The notes under the pieces are model-generated. The model did no database searches and had not been told where the DNA came from. It saw only the letters and a list, made by a program, of their open reading frames with translations. The translations under genes and the position numbers were made by a program. From a virus, in the IMG/VR virus record IMGVR_UViG_3300033153_007310: a stretch of 17,786 nt of DNA. One strand, written 5' to 3'. Of the stretch, positions 7,066 to 9,471 are shown one piece after another (position 1 is the first letter of the stretch; every line of letters starts with the position of its first letter).

Positions 7066-7674
7066 ATGAAACTGGACGTATATTTACACGGAAGTAAAGA
7101 AGATGCTACATATCTAGCAGAAGAAAATTGTGGTGATATGGATTCTAAAAGACTTTATGATTCCATATTAAACTGCACACACGAAGTTATGGTAACTTTG
7201 GATATAAATGTATTAACTGGAGATAGTAGAATTATAGCAGTTGATAAAAAGCCTATAATAGATGAAGCTCTTGAACAATCAACGAAGGAATTAGCTTTTG
7301 CATCTTTTGACGGATCTGCTCAACCAAATCCAGGTAATATGAATATCGGGTATTTAATTAAAAATACCGATGATGTAATTATTTTTAGAGAATCCAAAAA
7401 TCTAGGATTCGGAACTAATAATGTAGCTGAATACCAGGCATTACTTGCCCTACTTCAGAAATCAGAAGAACTTGAAATTGAACATCTTGCAATAAAGGGA
7501 GATAGTCAGTTAATAATCAAACAGGTTCAAAAAGAATGGAAATGTAGAAAGCAAGAACTTATCCCTTTAAGAGATGCATGTATAGATTTAATTAATAAAT
7601 TCAAATCATGTGAACTACAATGGGTTCCAAGAAATCAAAATTCTGATGCCGATTGGTTATCACAAAAAAGGTAA
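7066..7674 (+). CDS. RNase H-like (RNase HI fold) protein with an ~80-aa N-terminal extension
   Basis: The DEDD catalytic set is present in canonical order: AFASFDGSA (D), NNVAEYQALL (E), IKGDSQLII (D), NSDADWLSQK (D). There is an AAAGGAG SD 11 nt upstream. Confidence 0.7.
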   Translation: MKLDVYLHGSKEDATYLAEENCGDMDSKRLYDSILNCTHEVMVTLDINVLTGDSRIIAVDKKPIIDEALEQSTKELAFASFDGSAQPNPGNMNIGYLIKNTDDVIIFRESKNLGFGTNNVAEYQALLALLQKSEELEIEHLAIKGDSQLIIKQVQKEWKCRKQELIPLRDACIDLINKFKSCELQWVPRNQNSDADWLSQKR

Positions 7675-7676
7675 TT

Positions 7677-8885
7677 ATGGAAATATTTAATTTTGATGAA
7701 GAAGTTCCCCTATACACTTGGGCGAATGAATTAGAAACTGAAGGATTACAACAAATTAGAGATTTAGCAAAACTCCCTTTTATATTTCATCATGTTTGTG
7801 TAATGCCTGATGGGCATCCTGGTTATGGTATGCCTATTGGTGGAGTTATTGCTTGTATTAATGCAGTTATTCCTAATGGTGTTGGAGTTGATATTGGTTG
7901 TGGAATGATAGCTATAAGAACTAATCTTCTTGTTGGTTGTATGACTATGAAAGAAATAAGAGAATTATTAAATAATGTCAAAAAACTCATTCCTATGGGT
8001 GAAGGTAAAGCACATAAACATCCTTGTAATTGGGATGGATTTGAAAAATATTCTAACTTTTTATTAATGACTGCAGATTTAGAATGGTATGAAACAAAAA
8101 TATGGGAACTTGCTCATAGAAATTTAGGAACATTAGGTGGAGGTAATCATTTCATCGAACTTCAAAAAGGAGATGATGGTTATATCTGGTTAATGATTCA
8201 TTCAGGATCAAGAAATTTAGGATATCAAATTGCCTCATATTATAACAAACTTGCACAACATCTTTGTAGACAATATTATTCTCCACTTCCAAATGAAAAT
8301 GTTGCTTTTCTCCCTGCAGATTCAATTGAAGGACAGGCATATATAAGAGATATGAATTTCGCTCTTGACTATGCTTATAAAAATCGTCAAGTAATGATGA
8401 ATTGTTTTAAATCATGTATTAAAGATGTATTCCCTAATGTTGAATTTGATGAAGAAATAAATATTCATCATAACTATGCAACTCTTGAAAATCATTTCGG
8501 AAGAAATGTTTGGATTCATCGTAAAGGGGCAACAAGTGCTTTTAAAGATCAACTCGGTATTATTCCCGGATCTATGGGAACTGCTTCATATATAGTTAAA
8601 GGAAAAGGAAATAGGGATTCATTTCTATCATGCTCTCATGGGGCAGGAAGACCTATGAGTAGATCAAAAGCATCAAGAAAGTTGACAGAAAGTCAGTGTA
8701 ATGATGATATGAAAGGGATTGTATTTGATCGGTGGAAAAAAATCAAAAGAGGGAGACAAAAAGGCAACCTGGACCTAAGTGAAGCTCCAGGCGCTTACAA
8801 GAACATTGAAGATGTTATGAAGAATCAAAAGGATCTTGTTGATATTGTTGTTCAACTTTTACCATTAGGAGTGCTTAAAGGGTAA
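7677..8885 (+). CDS. rtcB: RtcB-family RNA ligase (3'-phosphate/5'-OH RNA-splicing ligase)
   Basis: Signature RtcB motifs are present: MPDGHPGYGMPIGGV, GGGNHF, HSGSRNLG, HRKGAT, IPGSMGTASY, SCSHGAGR. The ORF-track start at 7653 is a TTG that overlaps the upstream gene. The in-frame ATG at 7677, after AAAAAAGG and 2 nt past the upstream stop, is the likely start. Confidence 0.85.
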   Translation: MEIFNFDEEVPLYTWANELETEGLQQIRDLAKLPFIFHHVCVMPDGHPGYGMPIGGVIACINAVIPNGVGVDIGCGMIAIRTNLLVGCMTMKEIRELLNNVKKLIPMGEGKAHKHPCNWDGFEKYSNFLLMTADLEWYETKIWELAHRNLGTLGGGNHFIELQKGDDGYIWLMIHSGSRNLGYQIASYYNKLAQHLCRQYYSPLPNENVAFLPADSIEGQAYIRDMNFALDYAYKNRQVMMNCFKSCIKDVFPNVEFDEEINIHHNYATLENHFGRNVWIHRKGATSAFKDQLGIIPGSMGTASYIVKGKGNRDSFLSCSHGAGRPMSRSKASRKLTESQCNDDMKGIVFDRWKKIKRGRQKGNLDLSEAPGAYKNIEDVMKNQKDLVDIVVQLLPLGVLKG

Positions 8886-8887
8886 GT

Positions 8888-9151
8888 ATGATAAAAACAA
8901 GTGATATTCAACGATGTATTAATGATTACTCAGGGGGCGGAATCACTGTTATTGAAGTTCTTCCAGATCCAAACATTTCTTATTCATATGTTGTACTAAC
9001 TGATCATGAAGGGTGGGGGTATATAGTTCATGATAAAGGAGGTGGAAAAATAGAAGTTTGGGATGAGTTTTTAATAGATCCGGGAAAAACATTACAGGAT
9101 CTTACCACAGGTCCACCATCATTACTAAATATGGTAATGACAATATATTAA
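8888..9151 (+). CDS. Hypothetical protein (87 aa), translationally coupled to rtcB
   Basis: The ATG is 2 nt after the rtcB stop. It has a glycine-rich motif (YSGGGITV…DKGGGKIEV). No recognised domain. Confidence 0.45.
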   Translation: MIKTSDIQRCINDYSGGGITVIEVLPDPNISYSYVVLTDHEGWGYIVHDKGGGKIEVWDEFLIDPGKTLQDLTTGPPSLLNMVMTIY

Positions 9152-9159
9152 AAGGAGGT

Positions 9160-9471
9160 ATGAATCCACTAACAAACATAAACAACCGAATTAATTTCTT
9201 AAAAAATAACATAGAAGATTTAACATCTAAATTATATGAAACGAAGCAGATGAGAAAGAAACTCTGTCCTCATACTCGAATTAAATTACAAACTGAATAT
9301 TGTATTACTTATAGTAATGGTCTTCGAGCTCCTCATGACTGTTTTCAACCTCCAAAACTTATCTGTTTAGATTGTGGTTTAAATTATTCAGATAAAAAAG
9401 CTCCGGAGAATTGGGAAGATAGAATATGTGAGACAGAGATAATAGAAGATGAATATATCCCTGAATTTTAA
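9160..9471 (+). CDS. Hypothetical protein with a putative Cys/His zinc ribbon (103 aa)
   Basis: There is an AAAGGAGG SD. It carries C-P-H…C…H-D-C…C-L-D-C-G, a possible Zn-binding knuckle. No family assignment. Confidence 0.45.
   Translation: MNPLTNINNRINFLKNNIEDLTSKLYETKQMRKKLCPHTRIKLQTEYCITYSNGLRAPHDCFQPPKLICLDCGLNYSDKKAPENWEDRICETEIIEDEYIPEF

Follow-up and report, generated by a model that had tools for sequence, protein, structure and literature searches.

Does an RtcB RNA ligase that a phage encodes among tightly packed genes act in concert with its neighbours, or have functions that are independent of one another come to share a transcript? We asked this question of a window (the whole stretch of DNA analysed, 17,786 nucleotides, from virus record IMGVR_UViG_3300033153_007310 of IMG/VR) in which an initial annotation had read positions 7066-9471 as an RNA-repair operon, with an RNase H-fold nuclease and RtcB joined by two small proteins that might be archease-like cofactors or specificity factors. 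With a probability of roughly 60%, we favour instead one accessory unit of independent functions, comprising an ordinary phage RtcB, orphan small genes and a separate RNA. Positions 6740-9647, from a tailed phage that is uncultivated and low in GC, would be transcribed as a single accessory unit in which genes for a Cys-rich protein, RNase HI and RtcB are followed by two small strain-specific genes and then by a structured RNA. Much of the evidence comes from comparison with L013 (JGI Ga0247413_1723601), a diverged syntenic sister phage that was located with the major vault protein (MVP) as anchor and whose MVP is 56% identical. The features of the unit are the following (aa, amino acids; nt, nucleotides):

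6740-6994, + strand: 84-aa Cys-rich protein (a homologue with 59% identity occupies the equivalent position in L013)
7066-7674, + strand: RNase HI of the archaeal type (RVT_3), 202 aa, with a 78-aa lineage-specific N-terminal extension (Pfam, structures, DEDD residues)
7677-8885, + strand: RtcB RNA 3'-phosphate/5'-OH ligase, 402 aa (PF01139, phrog_1075, catalytic residues)
8888-9151, + strand: 87-aa orphan gene (self-match only, coding-like codon usage)
9160-9471, + strand: 103-aa orphan gene with an N-terminal helix and a Cys/His-containing C-terminal part (self-match only, coding-like codon usage)
9486-9647, + strand: conserved structured RNA of ~162 nt, at 9001-9163 in L013 (covariation, covariance model)

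The four open reading frames (ORFs) of the initial annotation are all found on the + strand where it had placed them (7066-7674, 7653/7677-8885, 8888-9151 and 9160-9471), although the start of RtcB is likely ATG 7677, two bases past the RNase H stop, rather than TTG 7653. The gaps between the genes for RNase H, RtcB and the 87-aa and 103-aa proteins measure 2, 2 and 8 nt, so that the tight linkage described earlier holds for spacing and common strand; the translational coupling that was claimed along with it is at most suggested by this same spacing. RtcB matches PF01139 along the entire profile (5e-114, positions 1-426 of 426) as well as phrog_1075 (8e-121). When aligned to P. horikoshii (Ph) RtcB, the protein shows all the expected metal ligands (D45, H47, D72, C75, N157, H158, H175 and H281, corresponding to Ph D65, H67, D95, C98, N202, H203, H234 and H329) and, within SHGAGR, the GMP-accepting histidine H321 (Ph H404). 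The loss of catalytic residues had been set beforehand as the finding on which the RtcB identification would fall; with a full profile match and every residue present, the identification stands. We predict a GTP/Mn2+-dependent enzyme that would join RNA 3'-phosphate or 2',3'-cyclic-phosphate ends to 5'-OH ends.

RtcB is 61-76% identical to its L013 counterpart and at most 50% identical to every other viral relative found, the values being 38-42% for RtcBs of cultured phages and no more than 50% for those in IMG/VR. Among GenBank phage records, 708 of 50,697 contain RtcB, usually amid unrelated small hypothetical ORFs, and phages PHB04 and RSL1 carry rtcB among unrelated, closely packed hypothetical ORFs in a layout like that of the window. 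Seven other RtcB loci from IMG/VR have nothing in common with the window beyond RtcB itself. In the sister phage, ~262 nt (L013 7717-7978) split rtcB inside the metal-binding motif GGGNHF, at the very junction of G156 and N157, placing the two halves in different frames; the insert has no match among Rfam introns (group I included) and may represent either a novel intervening sequence or an artefact of assembly.

The most likely task of RtcB during infection would be to reseal tRNA or rRNA that ribotoxins or anticodon nucleases of the host have nicked. Such a counter-defence role, already put forward in the initial annotation, is reasonable because RtcB is intact and phage-encoded, while the function itself is drawn from knowledge of the family. 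That RtcB instead takes part in the processing of phage RNAs, for example by joining exons or RNA halves, appears unlikely to us: tRNA splicing is the canonical role of RtcB in archaea and eukaryotes, and the interruption of the L013 gene between GGG and NHF hints at active mobile intervening sequences in the lineage, but no tRNA gene, intron or ribozyme was detected in the window, the L013 insert resembles no Rfam intron and the splicing of group I and group II introns is independent of RtcB.

We turned to the RNA, the only element of the unit that looks new in kind and whose tie to RtcB is one of position only. The 204-nt intergenic region that follows the 103-aa ORF has a GC content of ~51%, compared to ~31% nearby, and its core (window 9487-9647, L013 9002-9163) is 78% identical in nucleotides between the two phages, on par with the best-conserved part of rtcB, whereas the adjacent gene for a 260-aa isochorismatase-like protein is beyond blastn detection in L013 and its product just 40% identical. 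Since the indels that separate the two versions (1, 1, 3, 2, 1 and 2 nt) are not multiples of three, the region is non-coding on both strands, which also rules out as a gene the minus-strand ORF (9359-9646) that overlaps the RNA. From 5' to 3', the RNA consists of a GGUGUGG motif, a first helix (H1, ~9535-9578) with the loop UCCACACC, the invariant segment CCUCCUUUGGGAUAGAUGUGG and a second helix (H2, 9605-9644) with the loop UCCACGCC...GCAA, the hairpin loops being of the UCCAC type. The 5' GGUGUGG pairs with CCACACC in the H1 loop, forming a pseudoknot.

Compensatory changes support this structure. H1 (11 bp) has 91% of cells paired and six pairs in which both sides changed, as opposed to controls slid along the alignment, which reached at most 53% pairing and showed no both-sides change; H2 (8 bp) is 100% paired, with both-sides changes in three pairs. 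Paralogous copies keep the pseudoknot as GGUGCGA with UCGCACC or UUGCACC, providing two further both-sides compensations, and the G-U pairs identify the + strand as the one that folds. The minimum free energy of the whole region is weak (z = -1.8), the support for the RNA thus coming from covariation and not from folding energy. A closing helix between a 5' GGUUGG segment and the 3' arm of H2, as in an attenuator, was rejected, as paralogues keep the 5' motif though the arms of H2 change. Taken together, the conservation above that of the flanks, the non-coding indels and the compensatory changes show that this is a structured non-coding RNA motif.

The motif is found in other phages as well. 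Motif scans revealed one identical copy of the RNA in the jumbo-phage contigs L018, L032, L033 and L034 (142-277 kb) and a diverged version in a further jumbo-phage contig, L035 (113 kb). Our covariance model (R1), which finds 6 copies in 4 phage lineages, a sample on which covariation statistics are thin, recovered all four versions; in L033 and in L035 it also detected a second, diverged copy, located ~30 nt upstream of the first (51 and 46 bits, respectively). These tandem copies lie on the minus strand at 3941-4106 and 4136-4291 in L033 and at 7177-7340 and 7374-7527 in L035. The contigs that bear the RNA include IMGVR_UViG_3300027893_000003, 3300027888_000004, 3300001782_000005 and 3300027881_000007. 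Neither a blastn search of GenBank phages nor Rfam returned a match to the RNA. The 21-nt single-stranded segment CCUCCUUUGGGAUAGAUGUGG is near-invariant across the four main copies and contains CCUCCUUU, the exact complement of the phage AAAGGAGG ribosome-binding sites (AAAGGAG(G) being the ribosome-binding sites read in phage genes), and a U-run comes after H2 in L013, L033 and L035. The RNA is probably a small regulatory RNA or leader; it would represent a separate mobile phage element that is not specific to rtcB.

The closeness of this RNA to rtcB, and of both to a gene for MVP, brings up the alternative that RtcB and the RNA, perhaps along with MVP, constitute a ribonucleoprotein, or that the RNA is self-cleaving or processed and has its 2',3'-cyclic-phosphate and 5'-OH ends joined by RtcB. 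The models for such an arrangement are the rsr-Y RNA-rtcBA operon, the vault with its vault RNA and the MVP/Band-7-RtcB-non-coding RNA (ncRNA) systems attributed to Burroughs and Aravind 2016. The features concerned, together with the gene block that lies beyond the RNA, are:

4109-6670, + strand: full-length MVP homologue, 853 aa, in a separate transcription unit (MVP_shoulder, 4e-22)
6693-6727, + strand: intrinsic terminator after the MVP gene, a 13-bp stem then UUUUU (fold energy)
9676-13781, + strand: block of genes for an isochorismatase/nicotinamidase-like protein (260 aa), a 251-aa protein, a PP2C phosphatase and a Ser/Thr-kinase-like protein (559 aa) (Pfam)

The RNA lies on the same strand as rtcB, 600 nt past it in the window and 283 nt past it in L013, and is the only feature conserved at that place; MVP, rtcB and the RNA fall within 5.5 kb in both phages. 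Furthermore, a later preprint (PMC13404743), citing Burroughs and Aravind 2016, states that in bacteria homologues of MVP occur in operons together with RtcB and ncRNAs. Yet this operonic linkage was not reproduced for the MVP clade in question, as RtcB was found within 10 kb of MVP at none of 162 loci (80 from bacteria, 80 viral ones and 2 from huge phages), and R1 gave no match in the 7 viral RtcB loci or in the same 80 viral and 80 bacterial MVP loci. Conversely, the RNA copies of L033 and L035 have neither rtcB nor MVP in the fetched flanks, and the fetched flanks of the jumbo-phage RNAs (~4-8 kb on each side) contain no homologue of any window protein. A further viral locus (L121) keeps MVP and the downstream isochorismatase-like/251-aa/PP2C/kinase block in the absence of rtcB, RNase H or the RNA. 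The terminator between MVP and rtcB is strong (-23.3 kcal/mol, z = -5.95, with 0 of 200 shuffles equally stable), which sets MVP apart from the rtcB transcription unit. Finally, the window has no Ro/TROVE gene (no TROVE or RtcA domain was found in its ORFs of at least 80 aa), and the Rfam search gave no match to Y RNA or vault RNA.

The evidence thus points against a tie of either the RNA or MVP to RtcB, and we consider a ribonucleoprotein of this kind, or an RNA processed and joined by RtcB, to have only a small chance of being correct. Very doubtful, too, is the bolder proposal that the pseudoknotted ~162-nt RNA belongs to a new phage RNA class working with RtcB and that MVP, RtcB and the RNA build a vault-like RNA-repair particle in this phage lineage; as a partner of RtcB, the RNA might provide a scaffold in the manner of Y RNA or vault RNA, divert host anticodon nucleases as a decoy, or process itself to leave 2',3'-cyclic-phosphate and 5'-OH ends for RtcB to ligate or circularise.

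As for the RNase H, residues 81-201 match Pfam RVT_3 (3e-22) and RNase_H (5e-8), the NCBIfam equivalog models score the protein under their cut-offs, and the DEDD residues (D82, E122, D146 and D196) are intact when aligned to S. tokodaii RNase HI. Among solved structures, those of S. tokodaii RNase HI (2EHG/3ALY) and Halobacterium RNase H1 (4E19) come closest. These results bear out the earlier description of an RNase H-fold nuclease with an unusual N-terminal extension, which measures 78 aa. An exhaustive HMMER scan of 1.84 billion representatives yielded 12,796 matches to the catalytic domain, among which, the query's own sequence aside, a single 202-aa representative (P0132) matched over the full length (1-202); a scan of IMG/VR aimed at the extension found no close relatives. 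Because only P0132 and the L013 orthologue (also 202 aa, 37% identical from end to end, N-terminus included) align throughout, the extension is, judging by these alignments, real yet lineage-specific.

We regard the RNase HI as a probable independent enzyme that would cut the RNA of RNA/DNA hybrids and possibly double-stranded RNA, akin to its S. tokodaii relative. Its adjacency to RtcB recurs solely in L013, where the entire block is syntenic: no RNase H homologue was found near RtcB in the 7 other viral loci, and none is annotated near rtcB in PHB04 or RSL1. RNase H leaves 5'-phosphate and 3'-OH ends, while RtcB requires a 3'-phosphate or 2',3'-cyclic-phosphate end plus a 5'-OH. As the ends made by RNase H are not RtcB substrates, the two enzymes cannot act successively on one break, and a functional coupling between them, as implied by the initial annotation, is not supported by either neighbourhood or end chemistry.

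The two small ORFs are probably expressed genes by codon usage, with in-frame scores of 0.27 (87-aa) and 0.15 (103-aa) that fall in the range of confirmed conserved genes (0.15-0.35), negative scores in the five other frames of each and a low GC3 as in the neighbouring genes. Nevertheless, they are not conserved. Each of the proteins matches itself alone among 5.8 billion proteins, and there is no match in Pfam (archease included), PHROGs, NCBIfam, PADLOC or PDB sequences. L013 retains 13 of 13 other comparable genes at 30-76% tblastn identity (80% over the short DNA ligase fragment that the locus reaches), in the order Ros/MucR (on the opposite strand), two small genes, MVP, Cys-rich 84-aa protein, RNase H and RtcB, then a gap, followed by the isochorismatase-like, 251-aa, PP2C, kinase, 359-aa and DNA ligase genes. 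The 87-aa and 103-aa ORFs are the sole genes of the compared span that lack a counterpart there, and the equivalent slot holds a single, unrelated 83-aa ORF. The 7 viral RtcB loci have no counterparts of the two ORFs either.

Single-sequence AlphaFold (AF2) models of both proteins are of low confidence, with predicted local distance difference test (pLDDT) values of 57 (87-aa) and 58 (103-aa). In the 103-aa model only the N-terminal helix (residues 3-35) is confident and the C-terminal part has a pLDDT below 55; a Foldseek comparison of the 87-aa low-confidence model with PDB gave noise, with no match at E<=0.001. A resemblance to archease was thus seen neither by sequence (Pfam, NCBIfam and PDB, both proteins) nor by fold (87-aa model). 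The 87-aa protein had been described as Gly-rich, which is modestly true (10 of 87 residues, with two GGG runs). The zinc-ribbon likeness sought in the 103-aa protein amounts to one CxxC (C69/C72) and C36-x-H38, with no match to a Pfam zinc ribbon and a low-confidence model of the C-terminal part. We infer that the two genes are lineage-specific occupants of a variable slot between conserved rtcB and conserved RNA, rather than general RtcB cofactors. The initial annotation had itself tied its cofactor idea to conservation of the small ORFs and to their co-occurrence with rtcB elsewhere; since they are not conserved, and since protein databases, L013 and the 7 viral RtcB loci offered no such co-occurrence, the idea is, on these terms, largely refuted.

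That RNase H, RtcB and the two small proteins nonetheless operate as one RNA-repair machine is very improbable, the narrow spacing on a common strand, the coding-like small ORFs and the RNase H-RtcB adjacency in L013 being outweighed by small proteins that match no archease, family or fold and are missing from L013 and all other proteins searched, by unfit end chemistry and by the absence of RNase H from the 7 other viral RtcB loci and from the annotated surroundings of rtcB in PHB04 and RSL1.

We therefore return to the accessory unit of independent functions, against which several points can be raised. Enzymatic activity and expression are predictions from sequence. That rtcB and the RNA are neighbours in two phages may have a functional reason, and co-occurrence with rtcB in jumbo phages was judged from flanks of ~4-8 kb rather than from whole genomes. 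An anti-Shine-Dalgarno function of the RNA would derive from complementarity, and the motif is shortened to CUCC in paralogous copies. Conservation of the small ORFs was judged from one diverged relative, L013, and orphan proteins can still be local partners.

Beyond these main components, the 84-aa protein, whose gene is probably the first of the rtcB unit, has a Cys spacing (CxxCxxCC...C) that looks Fe-S-like by eye and no match in Pfam or PHROG. The MVP is 44-56% identical over 96-97% of its length to more than 5000 homologues and 44-46% identical to bacterial MVPs, and the GC content of its gene is 44%, compared to ~31% in neighbouring genes. A total of 164 MVP loci were found in IMG/VR, and MVP also occurs in the huge phages LR756500, LR756501 and LR756503; a single-protein scan of IMG/VR with the MVP of the window gave no close relatives. 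Near-identical contigs from other assemblies depart from the window through indels towards the 5' end of the MVP gene (window 4082-4242, 4380-4454 and 4601-4654): L008 lacks 161 nt, which cuts MVP to 771 aa, while two stretches, of 75 nt and 54 nt, are missing in frame from L009, the same phage in a second sample. Two insertions are further found in L008, one of 27 nt following window position 11361 and one of 39 nt following 14679. The block downstream of the RNA recurs near MVP in three phages (the window, L013 9240-13406 and L121 15922-21179). Its nicotinamidase-like protein has the motifs DPQNDF and SHC, and its 251-aa protein has a MIDAS-like motif by eye. The block resembles a vWA-PP2C-kinase triad; the vWA identity of the 251-aa protein was not confirmed by Pfam, PDB or a 3-sequence profile.

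The window is 99.98% identical, three indels aside, to the JGI metagenome contig Ga0366829_1006761 (22.8 kb), and no near-identical genome was found among GenBank phages. The source samples are JGI 3300033143 and 3300033154. A phage origin is backed by PHROG matches of the DNA ligase and several small ORFs, by Phage_ABA_S, and by collagen/CBM tail-fibre-like genes upstream on the source contig. The left end of the window (1-2417, minus strand), ORF-free at first sight, is a piece of an 829-aa minus-strand gene that leaves the window, and further upstream L008 encodes a tail fibre-like protein with collagen repeats and a CBM5/12 domain. These minus-strand and upstream genes indicate that the + strand block begins at a divergent junction, beside the Ros/MucR-like gene (2545-3195). 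Searches of the window for tRNA and tmRNA genes, for Rfam families at gathering score (and at E<=10 for 9400-9720) and for PADLOC defence models were all negative.

With the cofactor idea failing, experiments are better steered away from the two orphan ORFs. The analysis had two by-products: a pseudoknotted RNA motif, backed by covariation, that occurs in phages only, has no Rfam match and is arranged in tandem in jumbo phages, and a recurrent phage block that joins a full-length MVP gene with a nicotinamidase-like/PP2C/kinase set. Either could help to reveal what prokaryotic MVPs and phage small RNAs do.

How does the locus compare with known systems? Homologues of MVP in phages and bacteria are the subject of two preprints (10.1101/2023.11.10.566534, which reported phage MVPs, and 10.1101/872010), and the MVP of the window is akin to phage and bacterial MVPs in being full-length, encoded by a tailed phage and closest to bacterial MVPs. 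Unlike other MVP loci, it lies beside rtcB and the nicotinamidase-like/PP2C/kinase block, the link to rtcB recurring at 0 of 162 others. The RNase H of the window has the RVT_3-type catalytic domain and DEDD residues of the enzymes from S. tokodaii (RNase HI, 2EHG) and Halobacterium (RNase H1, 4E19), and the extension is similar in length to the 68-aa N-terminal extension of the Halobacterium enzyme; in contrast to archaeal-type RNases HI, the 78-aa N-terminus has no detectable relative outside the sister phage. As in bacterial rsr-yrlBA-rtcBA operons, a structured non-coding RNA stands beside RtcB on the same strand, but the window differs from these operons, and from the rtcR-rtcBA and RtcB2-PrfH systems, in having no genes for Ro/TROVE, RtcA, RtcR or PrfH and no match to Y RNA/YrlA. 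The model of PrfH-type RtcB (TIGR03073) scores its RtcB at 157 bits, below the cut-off of 272. The logic proposed for RtcB, a phage enzyme that reseals tRNA cut by the host, is that of T4 Pnkp and Rnl1 acting against the anticodon nuclease PrrC. As opposed to T4, which heals the ends and then seals them, RtcB seals directly, and the window encodes neither Pnkp nor an ATP-grasp RNA ligase, its sole ATP-dependent ligase being a DNA ligase. The closest parallels are the phage RtcBs annotated as 'tRNA splicing ligase' (PHROG 1075), such as gp041 of Bordetella phage PHB04, ORF082 of Ralstonia phage RSL1 and those of Caulobacter phiCbK-like phages and mycobacteriophages. Like these, the RtcB of the window is full-length (~400 aa), complete in its catalytic residues and encoded amid packed small ORFs in a non-structural region; unlike these, it has an RNase HI gene and a conserved structured RNA as neighbours, and it is only 38-42% identical to the RtcBs of cultured phages. 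It is thus a new, diverged member of a family annotated in hundreds of phages.

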